A stretch of DNA of 64,000 bases from an uncultured Candidatus Binatia bacterium (GCA_965215595.1 CBDCDW010000006.1:138129-202128); one strand, 5' to 3'. Positions 53,768 to 63,842 are shown, numbered from the stretch's first letter. Program-made: numbers and translations. Notes: generated by a model not told the origin, from the sequence alone.

Positions 53768-54055
53768 GTGACCAGCGTGGGCCCTACCATTGCGGGAATC
53801 ATCGGAGAGTTCCTCAAGACAGGCAGCTGCGCCAAGATGTACCAGTGTGTATCTCGGGTCCCGAAAAGCGTGCTGGCATTAACTGAGATTCCCGGACTCG
53901 GCGCAAAGACAATTCGGGTCCAAAGTACAAAATACAAGATTCGAAGCCTGAGGGATCTCAAATCAGCACTGGACGAAAACAAACTACAAGGTACCAAGGG
54001 TATCGGCGGAAAAACCCTTGACACGAAGAGGCAATACGTGTCCGACCACGCGTAA
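53768..54055 (+). CDS. Small ComEA-like tandem helix-hairpin-helix DNA-binding protein
   Basis: 95 aa. LTEIPGLGAKTI...LRDLKSA...GTKGIGGKTLDTKRQYV matches the ComEA/HHH_3 pattern (LPGIGxxxAxxI...G.F.S.EDL..V.GIG.KTL..I..Y). GTG start. Confidence 0.45.
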   Translation: MTSVGPTIAGIIGEFLKTGSCAKMYQCVSRVPKSVLALTEIPGLGAKTIRVQSTKYKIRSLRDLKSALDENKLQGTKGIGGKTLDTKRQYVSDHA

Positions 54056-54159: not shown

Positions 54160-55167
54160 CTAATTTAAGCCGGACAATCCGACAAAACTCCCCGCATTTT
54201 GTTCCGCCAACAAACGCATCAAGTGTGCGAAGCGAGTTCTGTTCGCCCTGCCCAGGTCGCTAAGGAAAAGAACCGGAAATCCAAATGTATGGATGCGTAC
54301 CTTTGGATTGCCTGATGCGTCCTTTTTGTTGATTCGGGCGACTTCTCTGAGTACTTGATCTGTGCTGCCGCTGGAAAAATCGTCGCCGAAGACATAGAGG
54401 CTGATGCGTTTATCCTTATTAAAAAACCGTTTCACCGCAAACAACACCCCTTCCACGGGACTGCTATTGCTGAAGCTTTGCCAGGTTCTGAACCGGGTGA
54501 TGACGGCTTTACGGCGGGCCGGGGTATCGGGGATCCAGCGTCCCGCATACGTACTATACATATATTCTCCCATGTCATTGATCACCTGAATCCCCTTCAC
54601 CTTGGGGTGAACCGCCAGCACCTCCTCAACCTTTTTCACAACCAGGGGCCATGCGGCTCTCAGCATACTGCCTGACGTATCAACAATAAAAATGATGTAT
54701 TCACTATCGACGGGTATACCCCCGATGGTTATGTCTTTGTCCGGTGGTTTGTAGGTTGGCTGCGCAATGAGGCGTTTCATTTCGTCACTCAGGGTCTGGC
54801 GCACGGCTTGAAGTTCCCTCTCGATCCGTGTCTGCTCATTGGCTTGACTCTGGGCCGCCGCGCTACGATCCCTGGCAACGGACCATTGCTCGCTCAGCGC
54901 CGCGAGGCGATTTTGTATCTTTCTTAGTTTCTTTTTTTTCTCAGCGAGCTTACGGGTTAGGTCCTGCCCCTCGCCCACCACCTTTTCCCTATCACCTTTG
55001 ATTTGCGCAATCTTGTCGATCAAATCCACCAAAATTCGTTGGACAGTCTTAGGTTCACTGGCCAGAGCGATAATTAGCAAAAGAATGATGGCGCCAAATC
55101 CGCATGAGATGGCATCGAGAAACGACAGGTTAAAAACTTCTACGTTGCGGCGTCGGCTTTTCGTCAC
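54160..55167 (-). CDS. Fusion of an ExbD/TolR-like transmembrane anchor, a coiled coil and a von Willebrand A domain (paralog 2)
   Basis: 335 aa. N-terminal NVEVFNLSFLDAISCGFGAIILLLIIAL, with the conserved membrane Asp in ExbD/TolR-like position. ~100-aa K/E/Q/R-rich coiled coil. VWA with MIDAS IIFIVDTSGSM; also LYVFGDDFSSG. Confidence 0.7.
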   Translation of the reverse strand: MTKSRRRNVEVFNLSFLDAISCGFGAIILLLIIALASEPKTVQRILVDLIDKIAQIKGDREKVVGEGQDLTRKLAEKKKKLRKIQNRLAALSEQWSVARDRSAAAQSQANEQTRIERELQAVRQTLSDEMKRLIAQPTYKPPDKDITIGGIPVDSEYIIFIVDTSGSMLRAAWPLVVKKVEEVLAVHPKVKGIQVINDMGEYMYSTYAGRWIPDTPARRKAVITRFRTWQSFSNSSPVEGVLFAVKRFFNKDKRISLYVFGDDFSSGSTDQVLREVARINKKDASGNPKVRIHTFGFPVLFLSDLGRANRTRFAHLMRLLAEQNAGSFVGLSGLN

Positions 55168-56255
55168 GGCCAGTTCCTTGACGGTGTGATAAACGAACCG
55201 CCTGTTGCGATGGCCAATCTCCAGAACGCTTCGGCAGCGGTAGGGTCGCCCTCGAGCGGAAAAAGCAGTGTGTTGATGGGAATCCCCCTTGGCAATCTAG
55301 CGGTGGCAGATTCAAATAATTTCAGTCGATCTTTTGCCGAAATGGTATTGGCCCTTGTGGCCCGAGAGCCCTGGGTGGGGAGCCCGTCGGTTAGGAGAAT
55401 GATACTATCCGGCTTGGGTTTGAGCCTGCTAGCAACCGCGAATGCCTGGTGCAAGCTGGTGCCCTTTTCCGGTGCTATTTGTCTGACCGAGGCAATTGCG
55501 TCGTTCAACCGATGGGCCTCGCTGCTGGATAACCACCGTCCTTCAGTGTCTGCGATGACCGGATGGGCCTCCGTATTGAATTGGTAGACTTGGAATTTCT
55601 TGTTGCTTTGTAGATTTGCCACCAGCCAGTGCAGCGAACGGACAACGCGACGCCATTTAGGAGCCTGTCGACGCGATTCGGCGTTCATGAGTTTGCGGCG
55701 CACGATATTGACAATGATCTCGTCCAGCATGCTCGCCGATGCATCGAGCAATATCAACGTGCGATCGCCGCCAAGTTTCAAGCCGGTCAGGTATTGTCTT
55801 CGGCCATCGCCCGTGTAACCGATGATACGCCCGCTCGGCTTCGCAGTTATCGTCTCCCTTGATTCGAGGAGCTTTTTGGCGCTTTCGAGGGCTTCTTTTT
55901 GCCTCTCGATTGCCTCAATGGCACGCTCCTGTTCACGGGCCGATTTCGTAGCCTCTTCGGTCTGTCCCTGTGTTTCGCGGATTTTTGCCAGGAGTTGCCT
56001 GGCCTGTCCTTCTAATTCTCCTTCTCTGATCTCGGTCTTCGTGACTTCATTCTGCAGATTTGCTAGGTGCTCGCGGGCAAAATCGTACAACGCGGTCACG
56101 CGATTCAGCTCGCCCTGGAGGTCTTCCTTTTTTTCTTCCCGTTTTTCCAGGACCTGCCCATTGAGTATCATGACGAGCAAAACGACTGCGCCAAAGCCAC
56201 AGAACATGATATCCAAAAAAGCCAGGCTGAAGGGTGTGCTTTCGCGTTTTTTCAT
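55164..56255 (-). CDS. Fusion of an ExbD/TolR-like transmembrane anchor, a coiled coil and a von Willebrand A domain (paralog 1)
   Basis: 363 aa. N-terminal STPFSLAFLDIMFCGFGAVVLLVMIL; coiled coil; VWA with MIDAS LILLDASASM and SIILLTDGLPTQG. 4-nt overlap with paralog 2. Confidence 0.7.
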   Translation of the reverse strand: MKKRESTPFSLAFLDIMFCGFGAVVLLVMILNGQVLEKREEKKEDLQGELNRVTALYDFAREHLANLQNEVTKTEIREGELEGQARQLLAKIRETQGQTEEATKSAREQERAIEAIERQKEALESAKKLLESRETITAKPSGRIIGYTGDGRRQYLTGLKLGGDRTLILLDASASMLDEIIVNIVRRKLMNAESRRQAPKWRRVVRSLHWLVANLQSNKKFQVYQFNTEAHPVIADTEGRWLSSSEAHRLNDAIASVRQIAPEKGTSLHQAFAVASRLKPKPDSIILLTDGLPTQGSRATRANTISAKDRLKLFESATARLPRGIPINTLLFPLEGDPTAAEAFWRLAIATGGSFITPSRNWP

Positions 56256-56277
56256 GGCCCAATAACGCGTCTAAAGT

Positions 56278-57078
56278 TTAAGCCTTGAGTCGATTTATAA
56301 ACAGGTTGTCGCAATACCGTTCAGTGCCAAGCACTAATCGCTCTTGCATCAGTTGAATCTGATGGATGATAAACATCAATACGATGCTGATCAGCAATGC
56401 GATCAAGGTGGAGTTGAATGCCACACCGAGACTCTGGGTCACGCCCGTAATATCGCCGCTGACCGCTTGATGGGCCTGCCCCAGTGCATTACCGATGCCA
56501 CGCACCGTGCCGATGAATCCAATGGAGGGTATTGCCCAGGCTATATAGCGTATAATCGAGAGTTCCGATTCGGAACGCTCTGCTTCCGATTCACACATGT
56601 CATGGACCACCATTGAAGCGTCCTGAATGCTTTGGGTCGTGGCAAAGCGGTCACTCGCACTGAGCAAAATGCTCAGCAAAATGTACTCCTGCATATTGAT
56701 GGGGACTTCCTCCCGGATCCTCTTTGATATGCCACGCGCCGTTTCAACGCTAATGTTGGCGTTTTTCGGCAAACCGATAAAATCCCACTCAAGTTGGCGC
56801 TGCTGGCGTAACGCAACCCACCCCTTGAAGGTCAGTATCGCCAAAGCCCAGAACATTAGTACAAAACAAGCCTCTTGCTCATAATCACGGATCACAACGT
56901 AGTAGGAACGCTCTGGCACAAAATTAGGATCGATTTTCATTTGCGCATGTTGCTCGGCCAGAAATGCGTCGGCGTTCGGCCGAACCACGGCAACGTAGTA
57001 CGCATGTATGACGATGAACGCTATCAAAAGCGCAAATACTTGGATGACCAGTTCGGTTGGAAAGTACTTTTTCATCAT
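56278..57078 (-). CDS. MotA/TolQ/ExbB-family proton-channel protein
   Basis: 266 aa. Three transmembrane helices; C-terminal signature IAWAIPSIGFIGTVRGIGNALGQ...GDITGVTQSLGVAFNSTLIALLISIVLMFIIHQ, compare TolQ/ExbB LGLLGTVxGM...GIxEALxTT. Confidence 0.75.
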   Translation of the reverse strand: MMKKYFPTELVIQVFALLIAFIVIHAYYVAVVRPNADAFLAEQHAQMKIDPNFVPERSYYVVIRDYEQEACFVLMFWALAILTFKGWVALRQQRQLEWDFIGLPKNANISVETARGISKRIREEVPINMQEYILLSILLSASDRFATTQSIQDASMVVHDMCESEAERSESELSIIRYIAWAIPSIGFIGTVRGIGNALGQAHQAVSGDITGVTQSLGVAFNSTLIALLISIVLMFIIHQIQLMQERLVLGTERYCDNLFINRLKA

Positions 57079-57084
57079 GTGACC

Positions 57085-57342
57085 TCAAATGTCCGTCGGA
57101 AATGAAACCGCTTTGTCGGCAGACACTTTTTCACTGGGAACGAATGTTAAAGGCGGGGGTGTTTTCTGGCGTTTACTCTCATCCGCCGTGGGGGGCCGGA
57201 TACCCGAAGGTTCAGAAGTTGTCTTATTGGATTCGGACGCCGCGAGGGCGTATCCGATGACCACCATCGAAATCAGCAACACCCCTAAACAGTATATAAT
57301 CAAGCGTGTATTACTTCGGCGATTCCGTGGCATAACGTGCAA
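57085..57342 (-). CDS. Possible small membrane protein, one transmembrane helix plus a Pro-rich tail. Weak call.
   Basis: 85 aa. LIIYCLGVLLISMVVIGYALAA, then PSGIRPPTADESKRQKTPPPLTFVP. Sits in the 230-nt gap between the MotA-like and FHA-PEGA genes, overlapping the latter by 32 nt. Confidence 0.3.
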   Translation of the reverse strand: MHVMPRNRRSNTRLIIYCLGVLLISMVVIGYALAASESNKTTSEPSGIRPPTADESKRQKTPPPLTFVPSEKVSADKAVSFPTDI

Positions 57343-59758
57343 TCCTGAAACCGATGTCGTTGCGAGGTTTCAACGTATAGTCCCGGTAGGACAACCGCAA
57401 CTGCGTAATGCCCCCGTGGCGCCAGCTAGCCCCTCGGACCCCATGAAGGTCCCCCGTTTTTGGGCCCATGGGATCGCGGAGCACCTGTTTGATGCCGCCC
57501 GTATATACATAGTAGTAGTCATGAATCCATTCTGCGACATTACCGCCTAAATCAAACAACCCGGCTTTGTTGGGTGGAAATTGACCCACCGGCGCCGCGA
57601 ATAAATACCCGTCCGAGTATCCTTTAATGATCACCGGCAATCGACCCGAGGCCGTGTCGTCGGCGTAGTTGCCGCTCCTATTGGGCGGTGGCATTTTAGC
57701 GCCCCATGGATACTTCAACGGCTTGTCGGTAGAGCGATGCCCCCCTTCATATCGCGCTGCGAACACCCATTCGGCTTCCGTAGGCAGACGATACCCGGCT
57801 GTCATGGGCTCCACAGCCACCATCTTTCCGTTCTGCTCACGATAGGCAGGCCGAAAACCGTCCTGTTTGCCGAGCCAATTCATATATCGTGCGGCATCGT
57901 CCCAGTGCACCGATACAACGGGTTGATCGGGCTGGTTCAAACTAACGCCCTTTCTGGTTCCCGAATCATGTTGCTTCCTGAATCTGTGAAACTCCTTATT
58001 CGTCACTTCCTTTTCGCTTATAAAAAACGAGCGAGTAAGCTCCACCACGTATTGTGTTTCATTGGAGCGTCGGCCCGCCTCCCGGCGCGAGGCGCCTAGT
58101 CGGAATTGGGTTGGTTTACTTATCTGAATTTGGAGTAACACTTGACCCGCCGCCGTCTTTGGTTCGTTGGCCATAACCTTCGATTTGGCACTACGAATCT
58201 TCTCGAGGCGAACATCAAGGCTCTTTGAAATTCCCTGTCGAGGAGTGACGTTCACTGAGTGGGTCTCATATCCGGGTTTGGTGATTTCCAACCGATGCGG
58301 CGCAGTGCTTAGCCGTAATCGCTGCGATGCGGATCCCGCATCTTTGCCATCCACTTTGAGCCTTGCGCCGGCAGGTCGGGTATTGAGAAATACAATACCG
58401 TGCTCAGCCGTTAACTCAATTTCGAGAGAATTTGGCTTGTCACCATCGAGTCTAACCGTCCGAGACACGGTCTTAAATCCTGGCTTATCAACCGTTAATT
58501 TGTGGTCCTGGCCTGACTTGAGGGTAAGGGTGATGGGTGAAGGCCCGCGGAGTTCCCCATTCACCGTAACGGCTGCACCCGACGGGGAAGTGGCAAGCTT
58601 TAGAACGCCGTCAACCTTCTCGAGTTGGAACAACGGTAGCTTAACCGTCTCATTTGCCTTGACCCTTACATCACTGGAGAGGGGTTTCCAGCCGTTCTTG
58701 CGAAGTTCTATACGATGGTTGCCGTTCATGGGCTCCACCCTGAGGGGCGTTACACCAACTCCGGTTCCATTTAGCAGCACTTCCGCCCCGCTGGGCTCGC
58801 TGGCAATTTCCAGGGTGCCCCACCCGGGCATGAGGGTGACCTCTTTGGTTTGACTGTCCCCTTTCCCACGAACCTCAATTGTCTCCTTGAAGGGGAGATA
58901 ACGATCCGCCTCCACGCGGAGTTCGCGCCGGCCAGCTTCGACTTCCAAAGATTTTAACGGTGTGAGCCCCGCCTCCTTACCATCGATGAATACAGCAGCA
59001 GACGTAACCGGGTGGGACACCACGTCAAGAAATCCGGGCAATTCGATTAATTTAAAACTGAGCACCAATTCCGATCCGAACTCGACATCAATGAGTTGTT
59101 CGAATTTACGATAACCTGACTTTTCCGCCTCAACCACATACCTTCCTGGCAAGGCCAAATACCGTCCAACAAACGGTACGGTGGGCCAAAAACCGCTAAG
59201 GGACACCGAGTCCGGCTTCGGAGTTACAGTCACCCGCACGGGAGCAGCCGCGATGACGAACACAACCCCACCCAATAGCAATGCAAACAACGCGAAGAGC
59301 ACTTTCAAACCCCGGTTACTTCGTTCACGAACGTGACCGATGGGTCTTACCGGAGTGATATTCGGTTCAGCCGAGGTTCCTTTGCCTGTCCCTTCCATCG
59401 CAGAAACGGCTAGGTTACCCGTTTGATGGGTACTCTCCGCTTCAACCGGCGACAGCACCAATGTTCCGGCCGTGCGCGCAACTCGGATCACCTGCCGGCC
59501 AATTTCGATTGTGTCGCCTGCAGCAAGCCACGCCGATTCTTCGAGCCTGCTGCCGTTCAACTGAACGGATTTAGACCCGGCTACGGGTTGTAGAAAAATT
59601 TTTCCCTCTTTATCCCCAAGCCATGCCACCACTATTGATTCCGCGAGGGTGCCAAACAGCAGGGATTCATCGTGGGATACACCAATGGCCAAAGGAAGGT
59701 CTGGCTCTGAAAGATCTTGCATCCCCTCAAAACCATTGATCCGTAAAATTGCGGTCAA
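57311..59758 (-). CDS. Multidomain envelope protein: cytoplasmic FHA-like domain, transmembrane helix, 4x PEGA domains, and a C-terminal FGE-sulfatase (SUMF1/GldJ-K-like) domain
   Basis: 815 aa. FHA-like N-terminus (LAIGVS...VQLNGSRL...GDTIEIG); TM VLFALFALLLGGVVFVIAAAPV; PEGA repeats (SEPSGAEVLLNGTGVGVTPL; ATSPSGAAVTVNGELRGPSP; NTRPAGARLKVDGKDAGSAS); FGE domain (GYRLPTEAEWVFAARYEGG...FDLGGNVAEWIHD...RGASWRHG...GFRIARY). Confidence 0.7.
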   Translation of the reverse strand: MTAILRINGFEGMQDLSEPDLPLAIGVSHDESLLFGTLAESIVVAWLGDKEGKIFLQPVAGSKSVQLNGSRLEESAWLAAGDTIEIGRQVIRVARTAGTLVLSPVEAESTHQTGNLAVSAMEGTGKGTSAEPNITPVRPIGHVRERSNRGLKVLFALFALLLGGVVFVIAAAPVRVTVTPKPDSVSLSGFWPTVPFVGRYLALPGRYVVEAEKSGYRKFEQLIDVEFGSELVLSFKLIELPGFLDVVSHPVTSAAVFIDGKEAGLTPLKSLEVEAGRRELRVEADRYLPFKETIEVRGKGDSQTKEVTLMPGWGTLEIASEPSGAEVLLNGTGVGVTPLRVEPMNGNHRIELRKNGWKPLSSDVRVKANETVKLPLFQLEKVDGVLKLATSPSGAAVTVNGELRGPSPITLTLKSGQDHKLTVDKPGFKTVSRTVRLDGDKPNSLEIELTAEHGIVFLNTRPAGARLKVDGKDAGSASQRLRLSTAPHRLEITKPGYETHSVNVTPRQGISKSLDVRLEKIRSAKSKVMANEPKTAAGQVLLQIQISKPTQFRLGASRREAGRRSNETQYVVELTRSFFISEKEVTNKEFHRFRKQHDSGTRKGVSLNQPDQPVVSVHWDDAARYMNWLGKQDGFRPAYREQNGKMVAVEPMTAGYRLPTEAEWVFAARYEGGHRSTDKPLKYPWGAKMPPPNRSGNYADDTASGRLPVIIKGYSDGYLFAAPVGQFPPNKAGLFDLGGNVAEWIHDYYYVYTGGIKQVLRDPMGPKTGDLHGVRGASWRHGGITQLRLSYRDYTLKPRNDIGFRIARYATESPK

Positions 59759-61278
59759 ATTTTTTCCTCACAGCGAACGATGATGACCGTTTCTTCACTC
59801 GATACAGGCACGCGGAAACGAACACGGACATCACGATAACCGGTACGGGAGCCCACTACTGTATATTCCCCGGGCCGCAGCATCATGCGACGCTCGCTAA
59901 AACGGCCAAAGCGTCCTATTCGGTATAGTGTAACGTCAGTCAGTTTATCAGAGCGGAGGACAACGGGGCGGGGCGTGCTAAAGTCATCCACGAGGGTACC
60001 CAGGCGCTCAAGCTTTGCACGTAGGTTCGCACCGAGGTTCGACATTCCACTGGACATTAACAGTAACTTTCCTGCTTGCGCCAATGGATCGGGCGACTGC
60101 AAGCGCTCCGGATTTGTCAGGAAAAAATCAACCTGCCGGTCTAGCCGAACATATTTTTCCGCCCGGGTTTTGCCTCGCATGGCAAAAGTCGCATTCTGAT
60201 CGATGCCCAATGCTTGGTCGTAGGCCTTGAGAGCCTGCTCCCAACGTTTACCTTCCTCATGCTGCGCGGCACTCCTGCGTATCTCTTCCAGTGCGGAAAT
60301 TTGCTTCGCTTTCCGCAATTTTCGACCGAGGCTTTGAACTTCGGGAGCGTTAGGGCGAAAGCTGGCCGCCTGATCCAGAGATTGCTGCGATTGCTCAAAT
60401 TCTTTTCGTTCCAATGCCGCCGATGCGGAGGATATGGCGCTTTTGTATTTCCGCTTGACAATTAACTCGTCGATCCGCCGCAGGCGATCACGGGCGGGTT
60501 GATAGTCCCCGTCGAGGGCAATTGCCGCGGCATACTCTTTCTTCGCCTGGACTAGATCCCCTTTCGATTCAAAGGCATGCCCTTGCTGAACTCGTTCAAT
60601 GACTTGTTTGAGATTACGCGCCCTGTTTAAACCGTGGTTTGCGGCCACATTCCCCGGATCAAGGGAGAGAGCCATTTCAAACTGGGTTTGTGCCGCCTGG
60701 TCATCGATTTGCTCGAGGGACTTCGTCCCTTTTCGCATTGCATTTTGCAGCCGATCCGGTTGGCTGGTTTCGAGCTGGTTAAACAGTGACAAGGTCTCGC
60801 TATAGCTCTTCCCGGCTAGCTCAAAACGCCCGGCATCAAGATGCGCATTCCCATCGGCAACTTTCGCCAAGGCGGCCGGGTAACTCGTTGCCATTTTTTC
60901 TTTACCCCAAATCTTGACGCCGTTGTTTTCAAGCCGTGCCTGATGTTCCAGGACTCCGCGCAGCAGATTTTTCGCCTTCATTTTCGCGTGGGCTTGAAGC
61001 TCAGAAGTTTTCGTCGATTTGGAAATCGGCGTTTCGGGTCTGGGTGTCTCCGTTTTGGCCGGAGTCGTATTGGATGGCCGGCCGACCAGTCTGGGCAAGA
61101 TCACGACCACTCCTATGGCTCCCACAGTGACAACCGCAAATACGAGGAACAACAATACATTTGAGCGTTTGTACCCGGCCTCCTGTGAAATAGAAGGCGG
61201 CACCGAGGGTGAGGTAAGATCTGGTTTGGCCTTCGCTGGCGGTGGCGTGAGCACCGGTCTGCGTGGCTTCTGTTCCAC
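59755..61278 (-). CDS. Membrane-anchored TPR-repeat protein
   Basis: 507 aa. Pro-rich N-terminus; TM LLFLVFAVVTVGAIGVVVIL; multiple TPR-like helical repeats (AY..ALxxDPxN-type); basic C-terminal beta-rich tail. Confidence 0.6.
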   Translation of the reverse strand: MEQKPRRPVLTPPPAKAKPDLTSPSVPPSISQEAGYKRSNVLLFLVFAVVTVGAIGVVVILPRLVGRPSNTTPAKTETPRPETPISKSTKTSELQAHAKMKAKNLLRGVLEHQARLENNGVKIWGKEKMATSYPAALAKVADGNAHLDAGRFELAGKSYSETLSLFNQLETSQPDRLQNAMRKGTKSLEQIDDQAAQTQFEMALSLDPGNVAANHGLNRARNLKQVIERVQQGHAFESKGDLVQAKKEYAAAIALDGDYQPARDRLRRIDELIVKRKYKSAISSASAALERKEFEQSQQSLDQAASFRPNAPEVQSLGRKLRKAKQISALEEIRRSAAQHEEGKRWEQALKAYDQALGIDQNATFAMRGKTRAEKYVRLDRQVDFFLTNPERLQSPDPLAQAGKLLLMSSGMSNLGANLRAKLERLGTLVDDFSTPRPVVLRSDKLTDVTLYRIGRFGRFSERRMMLRPGEYTVVGSRTGYRDVRVRFRVPVSSEETVIIVRCEEKI

Positions 61279-61297
61279 TTAGAGGATTCCTCGCAAA

Positions 61298-62677
61298 CTA
61301 AAGCTGTTCCATTTCCATCCCGTTCTCATTTGGAACAACGGGAATGGAATCGGTAGACCCGTTCTCGATTGAATCGATGGGTTGTACTTCTGTGGGGACG
61401 GAAGGTCTTAGTGTACCAACCTCCCGTTCATGAATGTCTTTTAGAATTCCACGCCACTGTTCAAATTTCGCTTCGGCAGAACCCCTCAGTTCCACCGTTT
61501 CACCCTCGATTTGAACCACAGTGACTTTAAGGTCTTCCGACAGAGAGTCACCAAGTTCCTCCAGTGCCGCTTTGTGGATCTCCATATCCTGTTTGGCTTT
61601 GGACGACGCCTCAATAGCCATACTGACGCTGACAGCGGTGGCCGTTCCCGCGATGACACCGCCAACAGCCGCACCAGACTTTCCGCCGGCGACAGCAATG
61701 CCCACCCCCACAAGGGTCCCCAAGACTCCCAATGCGACAGCACGGCCCAACTTTTTATTCCGCTTTTTTTCCAGATCACGTACGGCATTCATCTCATTGA
61801 GGCGGGCGCTGCGCCACTGGGTATACTCAGCACTCATTTCCCGGGATAGCCTTTCGTATTGCAGGTCCAGGGTGTCAACCAGTGCTTCCTCACGGACGCG
61901 AATGCGCCTAATTCGCTTCAACATGGAATCATCATCTGCCGGTAGCCGCGCAACCCTGAAAATTGGACTGGTCTCAGATGGTGCAGAATTCCTTGACCAG
62001 AAGGAATTGGATTCCTGCTTCAGTACCCCGTTAACCAAGTAGCCCTTGAACGCATCCGGTGCGAACTCTTCGGCGAACCTCAGTTCTGCAACCTGACGAA
62101 TCGACTCGACTTCCTTGGACGCCATCTTCACGCGATGCTGTGCCAGATCGTTGGCGATTCGGTTGTATAAATATTGAAAGGGTTCTGTGTTGTTTTCCAA
62201 CCGGTCGTAGACTTTAAGATCCACGACTTCTTCATACTCTTTTTCAAACCATAACAACCCGGTGGCGTCATGGACACTGATTTCAAGCTTCAATATCTCA
62301 CCATCGGATTCCAGGATCCGGCCGGTGATGATCACCTCACCGCCGGTAACCGCCGTGGAAACAACCCGTACGGGCCCCCAATAGCCCGACTGTTGCATGG
62401 CGTTTCTTAACTGGACCGCTGAGTAATACCCTTCCGCCTTCCGGATTTCCTTGGATATGCCACGTGACTCATCCTCCTCTTTCGAGATCTCTCCCGGCTC
62501 AAATGGCTTGATTCGGACCCCCAAGAGCTCAGCTTCAACGATTTCCAATTTCGGCTGAGCAAGTACGACCTTTTCGTAGCTCACGTCTCGTTTTGCGAAG
62601 GTAGACGCACATCCACCCAGGAAACAAATTCCGATAATGGCTCCGAGCCAAACTCGTATTTGAGACCCAAGTATCAT
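61298..62677 (-). CDS. Predicted lipoprotein with a C-terminal Gly/Ala-rich glycine-zipper segment
   Basis: The likely start MILGSQIRVWLGAIIGICFLGGC has lipobox LGGC. Central coiled-coil region. ALGVLGTLVGVGIAVAGGKSGAAVGGVIAGTATAV glycine zipper. Acidic C-terminus. Confidence 0.5.
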   Translation of the reverse strand: MILGSQIRVWLGAIIGICFLGGCASTFAKRDVSYEKVVLAQPKLEIVEAELLGVRIKPFEPGEISKEEDESRGISKEIRKAEGYYSAVQLRNAMQQSGYWGPVRVVSTAVTGGEVIITGRILESDGEILKLEISVHDATGLLWFEKEYEEVVDLKVYDRLENNTEPFQYLYNRIANDLAQHRVKMASKEVESIRQVAELRFAEEFAPDAFKGYLVNGVLKQESNSFWSRNSAPSETSPIFRVARLPADDDSMLKRIRRIRVREEALVDTLDLQYERLSREMSAEYTQWRSARLNEMNAVRDLEKKRNKKLGRAVALGVLGTLVGVGIAVAGGKSGAAVGGVIAGTATAVSVSMAIEASSKAKQDMEIHKAALEELGDSLSEDLKVTVVQIEGETVELRGSAEAKFEQWRGILKDIHEREVGTLRPSVPTEVQPIDSIENGSTDSIPVVPNENGMEMEQL

Positions 62678-63576
62678 CTTTTTGAAGTCTTGTACTTTCG
62701 ATATTCGTCCCACAGCTTTTCTTTCATCACCGGGTCCTGTTCCTTTTCCGCGGCCTCCCGCAACTGACGGGCAACGACATCGTCGTCGTTGCCACCCCCT
62801 ACAACTCTACCCCGAGGACTGGTTTTGACTTGTTTTTCTACTCCAGGAGCCGCACCCGCCTCTGCCATACGCGGCTTGGAGTCCGTGCCTTTTTCTTTAG
62901 ACGAAGATCCATCAGATTGGGTTTTCGCACCACCTGGATCTGATTGAATATTTCTGTCATCACCCTTTTCTTTTGTGCGCTGCGGACTTCCTTCTGATTT
63001 TTTGCTTGCTACTATTTCCTGAAGCTTCTCTTGTTTTTCTTGTTGCCAGAGATCAAATTCGTTCAGTGACTTGGTAAGCGGGTCTTCTATCGAGGCCAAC
63101 TTCTCCTTGTCAGTCTGCGCAGTCGTGGGAGTTTGCGGCGAACCCTGTCCTGAGGGAGGCTTCTCTTCGGGCAAGCGGCACTTAAATCCCAGTCTGTCCG
63201 GATCACCACCAAAGGTTCGATACTTTTGACAAGCCTCCAACATCTTGCGATGAAGGGAAGCGACGAATTCGGCGAATTCCACAACCGCAGGATCGTTTTC
63301 AGTCTCTGTCTTAACCCGCCGGAGCTCCCGAAACTCGGCTTCATTCTGGCGCCATTCCACATCGCTGGCGTGTAACTCGGCCAAAGCTTCAGCCAGCTGG
63401 CGCTTGGCATCCAAGTCGACCTGGGTCGTAGCCCAAGCCGTAGTCCCGATCAATAGACCGAATAGCATTAAGGCGGGAACATAACTTATATTCCCTCTTT
63501 TTGAACCGCTTCGTAGGTTGTGCCTACGACTCCATGGTTTCACCCTAAATTTGGTGTGCATTCGATCTCCAAACAT
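62674..63576 (-). CDS. Secreted or membrane-anchored low-complexity protein, first gene of the operon
   Basis: 300 aa. N-terminal hydrophobic segment VPALMLFGLLIGTTAWA, then a charged coiled-coil-prone, K/E/Q/S-rich low-complexity sequence. Confidence 0.4.
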   Translation of the reverse strand: MFGDRMHTKFRVKPWSRRHNLRSGSKRGNISYVPALMLFGLLIGTTAWATTQVDLDAKRQLAEALAELHASDVEWRQNEAEFRELRRVKTETENDPAVVEFAEFVASLHRKMLEACQKYRTFGGDPDRLGFKCRLPEEKPPSGQGSPQTPTTAQTDKEKLASIEDPLTKSLNEFDLWQQEKQEKLQEIVASKKSEGSPQRTKEKGDDRNIQSDPGGAKTQSDGSSSKEKGTDSKPRMAEAGAAPGVEKQVKTSPRGRVVGGGNDDDVVARQLREAAEKEQDPVMKEKLWDEYRKYKTSKR

Positions 63577-63620
63577 TTGCGGGGTCTAACTTCCCGTTAT
63601 TACTAAAAGATAACGGAACC

Positions 63621-63842
63621 ATGGGCGCCAGTCAATGCGAGGGAAATGTTAATAAACAACTGAAAATTGTCTTGGAAGAACAACGATATACGGGCCATGG
63701 GCGGTGGATCTCTGATGAGCTATCAGAGATTGCTGGCGGCATCGGAGGAATCGGCCAAAAGACCCTGGACACAATGCGAAGGTATGTAACCGAGCATGAG
63801 TCACCGGACCAATTTTCAAGCAATGTCCGGTGTATCTTCTGA
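63621..63842 (+). CDS. Small ComEA-like HhH protein, paralog of 53768-54055. Possibly degenerate.
   Basis: 73 aa. SDELSEIAGGIGGIGQKTLDTMRRYVTEHE aligns with GTKGIGGKTLDTKRQYVSDHA of the other flanking gene. Confidence 0.35.
   Translation: MGASQCEGNVNKQLKIVLEEQRYTGHGRWISDELSEIAGGIGGIGQKTLDTMRRYVTEHESPDQFSSNVRCIF

Follow-up and report, generated by a model that had tools for sequence, protein, structure and literature searches.

The 64,000-nucleotide stretch of DNA analyzed here (the window) carries a tightly packed operon of eight open reading frames, g1 to g8, at positions 54160-63576; all features described below lie on the minus strand. A preliminary description of the locus had placed an operon on this strand correctly but had counted seven genes. 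The two 4-nt overlaps that it named are present, as TTGA between the g3 and g4 frames (59755-59758) and as GTGA between the g7 and g8 frames (55164-55167), the latter fitting 1:1 synthesis of the two products. A third overlap, ATGA at 62674-62677, joins g1 and g2 if g2 starts at Met13, which is also the start in the public gene call. Upstream of g1, a weak sigma-70-like -35/-10 sequence (63607..63635, 9/12 match) is possibly the operon promoter, at low confidence; on its own the match is no evidence because the region has fewer such sites than its shuffles. The surrounding window is housekeeping chromosome (DnaE, PheT, ThrS, GuaAB, GlnE, and ThiC), and no copies were seen when plasmids were searched.

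The first gene, g1 (62674..63561), encodes a protein to which the public gene call assigns 295 aa, with the longest ORF extending to 63576. The product was expected to be secreted and of low complexity, and it has a signal peptide (...AWA/TTQ) followed by mostly low-complexity sequence; no Pfam or NCBIfam family matched it. An invariant C-terminal motif, NDDDVVARQLREAAEKEQDP..KEKLWDEYRKYK (62689..62790; columns at least 90% conserved in 22 sequences), was found in Microbulbifer too and may act as a ligand peptide. The second small secreted product, g5 (57085..57333; 82 aa), is supported by an alignment of 21 sequences and by the public gene call. The preliminary description had listed it as a possible small TM/Pro-rich protein; the gene is real and the middle of its product is Pro-rich and of low complexity, but the N terminus is a signal peptide. 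It ends in the sequence F.PSEK.SAD.AVSFPxDI-COOH, invariant in the 21 sequences, and the invariant C-terminal motifs of both g1 and g5 are acidic.

The g2 product (61298..62677; 459 aa) is an outer-membrane-type lipoprotein with an invariant lipobox Cys. Its N-terminal alpha/beta domain is of the PelC/TolB-N/LptE/CsgG type and is accompanied by a long hairpin of helices and, at the C terminus, a small domain. The glycine zipper proposed earlier for this lipoprotein was recovered as two hydrophobic Gly/Ala-rich segments at the tip of the hairpin (61613..61741), which is probably inserted in the membrane. Some sources name g2 homologues "SlyB," and one homologue matched PF13441. The next gene, g3 (59755..61278), encodes a bitopic protein of the inner membrane. 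Its cytoplasmic tail is rich in Pro, a single TM segment spans residues 42 to 60, and TPR repeats (TPR_2, E = 1.5e-7; TPR_1, E = 6.7e-7) lie in the periplasm, in agreement with its earlier reading as a TM-TPR protein. A conserved C-terminal beta domain in g3 appeared PEGA-like by eye.

The largest product, g4 (57311..59758), is a bitopic protein of 815 aa. The layout described for it beyond the cytoplasmic part was reproduced: a TM segment at residues 153 to 171 (59246..59302; hydropathy, 2.9), a periplasmic PEGA beta-sandwich array scored as four stretches (58154..59236; Pfam PEGA, E = 7.4e-55), and an FGE/SUMF1-like domain (57335..58108; FGE-sulfatase, E = 1.6e-36). The cytoplasmic domain (59459..59758) was only partly as described. 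The family profile recovered solved FHA domains (Ki-67, 1.4e-3; EmbR, 6e-3; Rv1747; GarA), and among 33 homologues Pfam FHA matched 4 and Yop-YscD_cpl matched one (1e-5), but the window protein itself had no Pfam FHA match at E < 0.1 and the positions of the canonical phosphothreonine-binding Arg, Ser, and His are not conserved in the family. Because this FHA-like domain is degenerate, the parallel drawn earlier with phospho-threonine signaling is a weak reading. The best named relative of the FGE-like domain is the type 9 secretion system (T9SS) ring lipoprotein GldK/PorK (GldK, 6e-27; 94.9 bits against a cut-off of 350). The two catalytic Cys of FGE have no conserved counterpart in the C-terminal segment ...GASWRHGGITQLRLSYRDY...; across residues 540 to 815, only columns 626 and 745 had Cys in over 20% of 61 sequences (46% each). 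Judged by these sequences, the domain is noncatalytic, and g4 is not a catalytic formylglycine-generating enzyme. A protein identical to g4, P0121, is present on a 4.0-Mb contig.

The g6 product (56278..57075; 265 aa) is a divergent channel subunit of the MotA/TolQ/ExbB family, as had been proposed (Pfam MotA_ExbB, E = 1.1e-13). It has four hydrophobic segments by hydropathy, and its topology appears to be MotA-like. It is very divergent from solved motors, with TolQ as the sole relative of solved structure (E = 0.27 to 0.44). In the predicted pore-lining helices (56365..56553), delimited by conservation in 75 sequences and alignment to TolQ, residues P184, T191 (of GTV), and T224 are invariant; in the printed alignment they stand opposite the conserved P-x-G-x-x-GTV-x-GI motif and the Thr of the last TM helix of Escherichia coli TolQ. 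A gene for ExbD, TolR, or MotB was not found in the operon by Pfam, nor was ExbD or TolR found in any cassette by jackhmmer. Only 2 ExbD-like ORFs were detected by jackhmmer across the window and the flanks of 83 loci, both in distant flanks outside the cassette.

For the dimeric subunit of this channel, g7 and g8 are the clear candidates. Both cross the membrane once, N-in, through a helix whose conserved Asp lies three residues into the membrane. Both also have a helical stalk, about 100 residues long and tightly fixed in length, and a VWA head with an intact metal-ion-dependent adhesion site (MIDAS). The g7 product (55164..56255; 363 aa) has >3600 homologues, and most of the matches listed are about 363 aa long. 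A basic cytoplasmic tail precedes its transpore-type TM helix (FSLAFLD15IMFCGFGAVVLLVMIL; 56160..56231), in which D15, C19, G20, and G22 are invariant. The periplasmic stalk (residues 33 to 133; 55857..56159) is predicted to be about 15 nm long and forms part of a single helix, residues 10 to 133, in an AF2 model of the monomer only. Its length is fixed while its poorly conserved sequence drifts: the membrane Asp and the MIDAS Asp are 156 residues apart in 62 of 69 loci. The most conserved motif of the g7 family, GDGxRQYLTGLKLGG, sits in the following neck, which is predicted to be disordered (55764..55856; AF2 pLDDT, 39 to 47). The VWA domain (55167..55763) has a complete MIDAS (D171-x-S173-x-S175, T266, and D290), matched VWA_3 (9e-7) and VWA_2 (4.5e-5) in Pfam, and in the AF2 model, where it is predicted with confidence, matched solved VWA domains by Foldseek (E = 5e-8; probability, 1.0).

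The g8 product (54160..55167; 335 aa) and g7 are paralogues (24% identity, E = 4e-6). In the transpore-type TM helix of g8 (FNLSFLD18AISCGFGAIILLLIIALA; 55057..55134), conservation of D18, C22, and G25 reaches at least 95% across 72 sequences. The g8 VWA domain (54163..54696; D163-T-S165-G-S167 and D262) is divergent and faint in Pfam (VWA_2, 0.007), and its DxSxS motif is invariant; the MIDAS residues are invariant in both proteins. These results bear out the two paralogous VWA/MIDAS proteins of the preliminary description, together with their conserved membrane Asp, which was kept in at least 95% of 81 g7 and 72 g8 sequences. The ExbD fold that it assigned to their anchors was not recovered. 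The g7/g8 anchor profile gave no match to ExbD, TolR, or MotB at E <= 100, Pfam matched neither ExbD nor MotB in either protein, and the periplasmic domain of ExbD is absent. By hhalign, the anchor FLD is paired with fID of ExbD/TolR at P = 0.02 to 0.05. The term "ExbD/TolR-like anchor" is therefore used here as a description and implies no demonstrated homology: no profile similarity to ExbD, TolR, or MotB reached significance, and what supports a relationship is context.

Next, we examined the distribution of the cassette. A genome scan, which listed the best 80 loci, found relatives in 569 species genomes; 50 loci had sufficient upstream DNA to be informative. The cassette was colinear in 49 of these 50 loci, which represent Alpha- and Gammaproteobacteria, Desulfobacterota, and Verrucomicrobia, so the eight-gene arrangement recurs more than expected by chance. 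Homologues of g1 came first in all 50 loci, g3 was found in 49, and g5 was detected in 37 using single-sequence phmmer. The channel gene g6 was directly upstream of g7 and g8 was immediately 3' of g7 in 50/50 loci, always with one copy each of the g7 and g8 types. Gene order was rigid, and sequence identity broadly tracked taxonomy. In Microbulbifer only, a gene encoding TPR and TonB_C domains lies 5' of the cassette.

The core of the operon, which the preliminary description regarded as undescribed, has already been predicted (PMC12204202; Mol Biol Evol 2025;42(6):msaf138). That study, with a seed from Idiomarina loihiensis, reported a family of TM-tethered vWA proteins tightly co-occurring with tolQ homologues without tolR or exbD, and it predicted that "transpore-helix" vWA proteins (TPH-vWA) pair in TolQ-like pentamers, with a 5:2 AF3 model in which two Asp lie inside a Thr ring of the pentamer. 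The family was found in Proteobacteria and Verrucomicrobia, and its function was given as unknown, with no phenotype. The window operon likewise has a tolQ-like gene adjoining two different TM-tethered vWA genes, without tolR, exbD, or motB, and both share the conserved Asp in the N-terminal helix ahead of the vWA domain and the Thr ring of the channel. The operon probably belongs with the TPH-vWA family, as judged from these described features. The section of the study on the vWA family covers the motor and vWA genes only, and its main text contains no occurrence of FGE or PEGA. The conserved accessory set g1 to g5, which remains new, is not discussed there, and neither the fixed stalk length nor the conservation of the MIDAS is covered.

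On this basis, we favor, with moderate confidence, the reading that the operon encodes a trans-envelope machine built on a 5:2 proton-driven motor, with g7/g8 as an axle that carries the VWA heads. We infer both the 5:2 stoichiometry and the g7/g8 heterodimer. Five copies of g6 would surround the heterodimer; the g7 and g8 N-terminal helices would occupy the pore of this pentamer, with each invariant Asp facing the ring of conserved Thr in g6. The passage of protons would then turn or pull the g7/g8 pair, and the length of the stalk would set the VWA heads about 15 to 20 nm into the periplasm.

The operon was compared with the systems that it resembles. It had been described as distinct from Ton, Tol, Mot, Gld, Zorya, and Bat, and none of the six assignments held. 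ExbBD-TonB and MotAB share the channel family and a bitopic, N-in small subunit whose membrane Asp lies close to the cytoplasmic face. In contrast, g7 and g8 lack the ExbD periplasmic domain, the MotB plug, and the OmpA-like peptidoglycan-binding domain, and the small subunit here would be a heterodimer of paralogues. A Ton system was rejected since the operon has no ExbD, TonB (TonB_C), or TonB-dependent receptor. A MotAB stator was rejected too, because the MotA model scored 12.7 bits (cut-off, 340) and both an OmpA domain and flagellar genes were missing. Tol-Pal (TolQRA-TolB-Pal-CpoB) is similar in that g6 has TolQ as its nearest relative of solved structure and the N-terminal domain of g2 has the fold of the TolB N-domain, and also in operon logic, with a motor, a periplasm-spanning protein, a TPR protein, and an outer membrane lipoprotein. 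However, force would pass through the axle itself rather than through a side-bound TolA. Tol-Pal was rejected because TolR, TolA (SHLS helix), the TolB beta-propeller, and an OmpA-like Pal were absent by Pfam and NCBIfam, and the tolQ model scored 24.6 bits against a cut-off of 221. Zorya (ZorA, 14.9 bits against a cut-off of 500; a PADLOC match at 0.004 only; no effectors) and Bat aerotolerance (no MoxR or DUF58; BatC, 15.6 bits against a cut-off of 175) were also rejected, as was GldLM/T9SS, for which the only match was the partial one of GldK to g4.

The architectural likeness to GldLM-GldKN would lie in a pentameric MotA/ExbB-type channel around the two TM helices of a dimer, whose long periplasmic extension reaches an outer membrane-proximal lipoprotein assembly with the FGE-fold GldK/PorK. 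A T9SS- or Pel/curli-like apparatus, in which the motor drives secretion, exopolysaccharide export, or gliding via a ring of g2 with g4 as GldK/PorK, would specify the output of the motor and does not contradict the motor model but refines it. We consider it unlikely. The operon shows no homology to GldL, GldM, or GldN, the cassette has no porin or beta-barrel translocon, glycosyltransferase, or cargo gene, and the GldK match reaches 95 bits against 350. In contrast to GldLM, the axle here combines a coiled coil, VWA heads, and a TM Asp, and unlike GldK, g4 is not lipidated but is anchored in the inner membrane via its TM segment and PEGA stalk. GldLM is from Bacteroidota, whereas the cassette hosts are Proteobacteria, Desulfobacterota, and Verrucomicrobia, many of them planktonic marine lineages without known gliding.

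Even less probable, in our view, is a static role, with g7 and g8 as Bat-type membrane-anchored VWA adhesion or scaffold proteins outside the channel and g6 working with ExbD/TolR from elsewhere or alone as a channel or sensor. The g7 VWA domain is structurally near BatB (3ibs, E = 3e-7), Bat operons likewise combine membrane-anchored VWA proteins with a TPR protein, and the anchors have no detectable ExbD homology. However, MoxR and DUF58 are part of Bat operons, which lack a MotA/ExbB channel, while the window operon has no MoxR ATPase, DUF58, or BatA_N signature, and its VWA anchors carry both a long coiled coil and the conserved Asp. The invariant Asp, Cys, and two Gly within the TM helix are hard to square with a passive anchor. 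Moreover, the invariable position of g6 immediately upstream (50/50 loci) and the lack of ExbD genes in nearly all neighborhoods argue against a scaffold. FGE-like and VWA domains are known from conflict systems, and g6 gave weak ZorA matches (NCBIfam, 0.009; PADLOC, 0.004), which could suggest a Zorya-like anti-phage or other conflict system with a 5:2 motor sensing envelope perturbation. This reading is very improbable: no PADLOC system was matched, effectors (including a nuclease or helicase) are absent, and all products are envelope located. The housekeeping chromosomal setting without a plasmid copy, the rigid gene order, and the identity broadly tracking taxonomy also speak against it.

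In the favored proton-driven machine, the VWA heads may engage other products of the operon close to the cell wall or the outer membrane, and the candidates named here are guesses. One is the noncatalytic FGE-like head of g4, which would stand at a similar height on its PEGA stalk; another is the g2 lipoprotein, whose fold is that of the ring-forming lipoproteins PelC, CsgG, TolB-N, and LptE. The acidic invariant C-terminal peptides of g1 and g5 are further candidates. The TPR protein g3 would serve as a scaffold, and the degenerate FHA-like domain of g4 may be the cytoplasmic contact of the machine. By analogy, the overall logic would resemble that of type 9 secretion, where GldLM works on the GldK/N ring, and that of the Tol system, where TolQRA works on TolB-Pal. 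The output of such a machine could possibly be outer-membrane maintenance, export, or surface movement.

All of the co-directional minus-strand genes that the preliminary description assigned to 54160-63576 were found, and the operon is real, but it holds eight open reading frames (ORFs) rather than seven. On the minus strand, these genes (g1 to g8) encode a secreted low-complexity protein (g1, 62674-63561), a lipoprotein (g2, 61298-62677), a TM-TPR protein (g3, 59755-61278), an FHA-like/TM/PEGA/FGE-like protein (g4, 57311-59758), a small secreted protein (g5, 57085-57333), a MotA/TolQ/ExbB channel (g6, 56278-57075), and two paralogous TM/stalk/VWA proteins (g7, 55164-56255, and g8, 54160-55167). 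Both 4-nt overlaps described earlier are present (GTGA between g7 and g8 and TTGA between g3 and g4). A third overlap, ATGA, joins g1 and g2 when g2 begins at Met13, which is the start of the public gene call, and the other intergenic gaps in the operon are 6-22 nt.

Among the Pfam domains expected in these proteins, MotA_ExbB (g6, 1.1e-13), PEGA (four domains in g4, 7e-55), FGE-sulfatase (g4, 1.6e-36), and TPR (g3) were recovered, whereas VWA was weak in g7 (VWA_3, 9e-7) and very weak in g8, and FHA gave no match at E<0.1 in g4 of the window. In sequence searches against solved structures, g6 showed weak TolQ matches and g7 showed coiled-coil noise only. The g6 residues P184, T191, and T224 are kept and align with TolQ pore motifs. 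The AlphaFold2 model of g7, which was built from 46 homologues (pLDDT 77), consists of one continuous helix at residues 10-133, a low-confidence neck at residues 134-156, a short transition at residues 157-164, and a confident alpha/beta domain at residues 165-363, for which Foldseek retrieved solved VWA domains (E 5e-8, probability 1.0). The g8 protein is a paralogue of g7 (24% identity, E 4e-6). When 81 g7 and 72 g8 family members were compared, both families retained a basic tail at the N-terminus, the membrane motif F-L-D-x-x-x-C-G-x-G (D15 in g7 and D18 in g8), and the DxSxS motif of a metal-ion-dependent adhesion site (MIDAS) with the downstream Thr/Asp. Between the membrane Asp and the MIDAS Asp, 62 of 69 g7 proteins have a spacing of 156 residues, and the g8 proteins have one of 141-145 residues. 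Because this spacing is fixed while the stalk sequence is poorly conserved, the stalk appears to be constrained in its length. Co-variation of the g7 and g8 stalk lengths, used as a test of heterodimerization, gave no signal (r = 0.05), because the lengths are nearly invariant among the loci compared. The most conserved stretch of g7, GDGxRQYLTGLKLGG (55764-55856, residues 134-164), is also the AlphaFold segment of lowest confidence (pLDDT 39-47), and the g8 neck has an invariant motif of its own, GG.PVDSEY; both necks are probably interface elements that become ordered only in the complex. One listed g7 homologue, P0046, bears the precomputed Pfam accession PF28006.1, which is missing from the Pfam copy used and may be a newly built family covering the g7-type protein.

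The N-terminal membrane helix of g7 and g8 had been called an ExbD/TolR-like anchor, a claim that holds by genomic context and is not proven by sequence. None of the cassettes, that is, the same gene set in relatives, contains an ExbD, TolR, or MotB gene, and the flanks of all the loci together contain just two ExbD ORFs. The anchor Asp lies three residues into the N-in helix, as D25 does in ExbD and D23 in TolR. Together with the retained TolQ pore residues, this context gives good support to the view that the g7 and g8 anchors work like ExbD. In contrast, jackhmmer searches started from ExbD/TolR never recruited g7 or g8, and a search with an HMM profile of the anchor did not find ExbD, TolR, or MotB; these comparisons used sequences of E. 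coli ExbD, TolR, and MotB together with the two ExbD ORFs present in the loci. Alignment by hhalign set the anchor FLD on the ExbD fID motif with a P of only 0.02-0.05, which is suggestive only. We therefore separate working like ExbD from being an ExbD homologue, and the latter is not proven by sequence.

The partner proteins g1 to g5 were also characterized. The FHA domain proposed for g4 proved to be weakly true. Nearly all of the best matches to a profile of 26 g4 N-terminal domains were solved FHA domains, including Ki-67 (1.4e-3), EmbR (6e-3), Rv1747, GarA, and EssC, and Pfam assigned FHA to 4 of 33 g4 homologues and Yop-YscD_cpl to one (1e-5). However, the phosphothreonine-binding Arg/Ser/His are not conserved, and the domain seems to be an FHA fold that serves in protein contact. 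In the same protein, the FGE-like domain is judged noncatalytic because Cys is not conserved at the positions of the FGE catalytic pair; among named proteins, the T9SS ring lipoprotein GldK/PorK is its closest relative, at far below the trusted score. In g2, the lipobox Cys is invariant, and the AlphaFold2 model (pLDDT 77, pTM 0.73) has three parts, namely, an N-terminal alpha/beta domain, a helical hairpin with helices of ~80 and ~45 residues and a glycine zipper at the tip, and a small C-terminal domain. The structures listed as most alike were a Vibrio LPHT-ring basal-body protein (11.7), PelC (10.8), TolB (9.9), CsgG (9.4), and PqiC, LpoB, LptE, and TraT (7-8), with which Foldseek agreed weakly (TolB, 1.6e-3). 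The g5 gene encodes a genuine small secreted protein with a signal peptide, a Pro-rich middle, and the invariant C-terminus F.PSEK.SAD.AVSFPxDI-COOH (57088-57147), and g1 is of low complexity except for the invariant C-terminal motif DDDVVARQLREAAE..DP...LW.EY (62689-62790). The g1 and g5 products are otherwise disordered secreted proteins with invariant acidic C-terminal motifs, which are candidate ligands of the TPR domain or the MIDAS heads.

To see how well the cassette is conserved, each of the eight window proteins was compared with the ORFs of the homologous loci of the 80 best relatives described below, of which 50 extend far enough upstream to be informative. Six genes (g1, g2, g4, g6, g7, and g8) were present in 50/50 loci, g3 was present in 49/50, all 49 being strictly colinear, and g5 was present in 37/50, even by single-sequence search. 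Homologues of g7 number >3600 in a 5.8-billion-protein set, most of those listed being 363 aa long, and the g7 profile matched 410 clusters at E<=1e-30 and 994 at E<=1e-10 in a 50%-identity library. Relatives occur in at least 569 of the 185,579 species genomes scanned; the best 80 of the 569 belong to Alphaproteobacteria, Gammaproteobacteria, Desulfobacterota, and Verrucomicrobia. The hosts are mostly uncultured marine and sediment lineages, and the cultured hosts seen were Microbulbifer yueqingensis and Geothermobacter hydrogeniphilus (Desulfobacterota). A nine-gene variant was observed in M. yueqingensis (L086 13226-14533) and in another MAG (L088 12517-13875), where an extra protein of 435-452 aa with no evident signal peptide or TM lies between g6 and g7. 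The g4 FHA-like profile recognizes the C-terminus of this extra protein (E 7e-7 and 6e-5), and its N-terminal 330 aa have no Pfam match. Because the Microbulbifer g4 has no FHA-like domain of its own, this arrangement looks like domain fission/fusion. Just upstream of the Microbulbifer cassette, a TPR + TonB_C protein (L086 3962-5284; TonB_C 5e-7) has no equivalent in the window. A complete bacterial-type cassette on a contig binned as 'Halobacteria archaeon' (L039, JABDRC010000065.1) most likely reflects mis-binning rather than archaeal occurrence. In addition, MAG CSMAG_1699 carries g7/g8 pairs on two different contigs (L042 and L055), indicating either two cassettes per genome or a mixed bin.

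The window comes from a metagenome-assembled contig of 4.0 Mb (ENA ERZ25074053), and the operon is surrounded by an ordinary housekeeping chromosome (DnaE, PheT, ThrS, GuaA/B, GlnE, and ThiC). A promoter and terminator scan was uninformative: shuffled controls contained more promoter-like sites than the real sequence and about as many terminator-like sites. No DNA repeats flank the operon, the flank-to-flank similarity being at the protein level only, and a search for plasmid-borne cassette copies found none. Short ORFs on both flanks, 53768-54055 (+) and 63621-63842 (+), resemble different parts of one HHH_8 (helix-hairpin-helix) protein, which is intact (167 aa) directly downstream of the cassette in a related MAG (L001 12135-12638). 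The downstream copy in the window corresponds to no more than the C-terminal 95 aa and adjoins an ABC-permease gene, and the upstream copy retains GIGQKTLDTMRRYV. These remnants on both flanks suggest a past rearrangement around the cassette. At 3-6 kb upstream of g1, beyond the right end of the window, the source contig carries DDE transposase genes (L084 1-507 and 2560-3087).

The motor reading of the preliminary description was reasonable and has been published independently: TolQ-associated "transpore-helix" (TPH) vWA proteins were predicted from an Idiomarina loihiensis seed, mostly in heterologous pairs and mainly in Proteobacteria and Verrucomicrobia, with AF3 placing the vWA-protein helices inside the Thr ring of the pentamer and with no phenotype known for the family (PMC12204202; Mol Biol Evol 2025;42(6):msaf138). 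Every testable feature of that family was found here, the match being by description and not by the Idiomarina seed sequence; a cluster-name search for this seed or a model organism yielded environmental lineages only, such as Halioglobus and Porticoccaceae. The locus therefore belongs to a recently predicted, experimentally uncharacterized kind of motor. The supposed novelty of the system holds only in part: the core was already predicted. The main text of PMC12204202 never mentions FGE or PEGA, a 2025 mBio survey of MotAB does not mention VWA, and we found in the published literature no named system with this gene set and nothing on ExbB/VWA/FGE/PEGA or PEGA/formylglycine/FHA/MotA together. 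What is added here is the definition of the full eight-gene cassette and the folds of the partners.

A 5:2 proton-driven motor, in which five g6 subunits would surround a g7/g8 heterodimer, is the model with the best support. The axle would be a fixed-length stalk of ~15 nm, presumably a coiled coil, carrying two MIDAS heads to the cell-wall or outer-membrane zone. A static Bat-like scaffold is disfavored because the membrane helix has invariant polar and small residues and because MoxR/DUF58 are absent, and a Zorya-like defense role is disfavored by the lack of effectors, the housekeeping chromosomal setting, and the rigid gene order. A PADLOC search returned noise and coiled-coil matches to LmuB/JetC/PbeC only, and a defense system was rejected. 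A specific role in export or gliding would refine the motor model without contradicting it. Functionally, the closest parallels are the action of GldLM on GldK/N and that of TolQRA on TolB-Pal.

Under the motor model, the likely targets of the heads would be products of the same operon, namely, the g2 lipoprotein, g4, whose FGE-like head stands on a PEGA stalk that reaches about as far, and the acidic peptides at the C-termini of g1 and g5. The peptides are proposed because a MIDAS binds carboxylates of its ligands and C-terminal peptides are common ligands of TPR domains, two rules that may extend to g1 and g5 by analogy. Tentatively, the eight genes could form one dedicated envelope machine ranking with Tol-Pal or the T9SS motor-ring and so far unrecognized as a whole, a reading that we consider possible rather than probable. 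The TolQ-like pentamer would spin or pull the heterodimeric coiled-coil axle, whose two MIDAS heads would capture the invariant acidic C-termini of g1 and g5; through these peptides and the g4 FGE-like head, the axle would work on a PelC/TolB-N-like lipoprotein ring inserted in the outer membrane by glycine-zipper hairpins, with the FHA-like modules as a cytoplasmic contact.

Ion-driven 5:2 motors are the power source for flagella, the import of nutrients, the maintenance of the outer membrane, gliding/type 9 secretion, and one anti-phage system, and, to our knowledge, each newly understood family has revealed a new route for sending energy across the periplasm. The present family would be the first whose axle itself ends in metal-dependent adhesion domains. 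Because the cassette supplies a complete and rigidly conserved set of candidate partners for a VWA-headed motor, the question of what such motors act on becomes directly testable.
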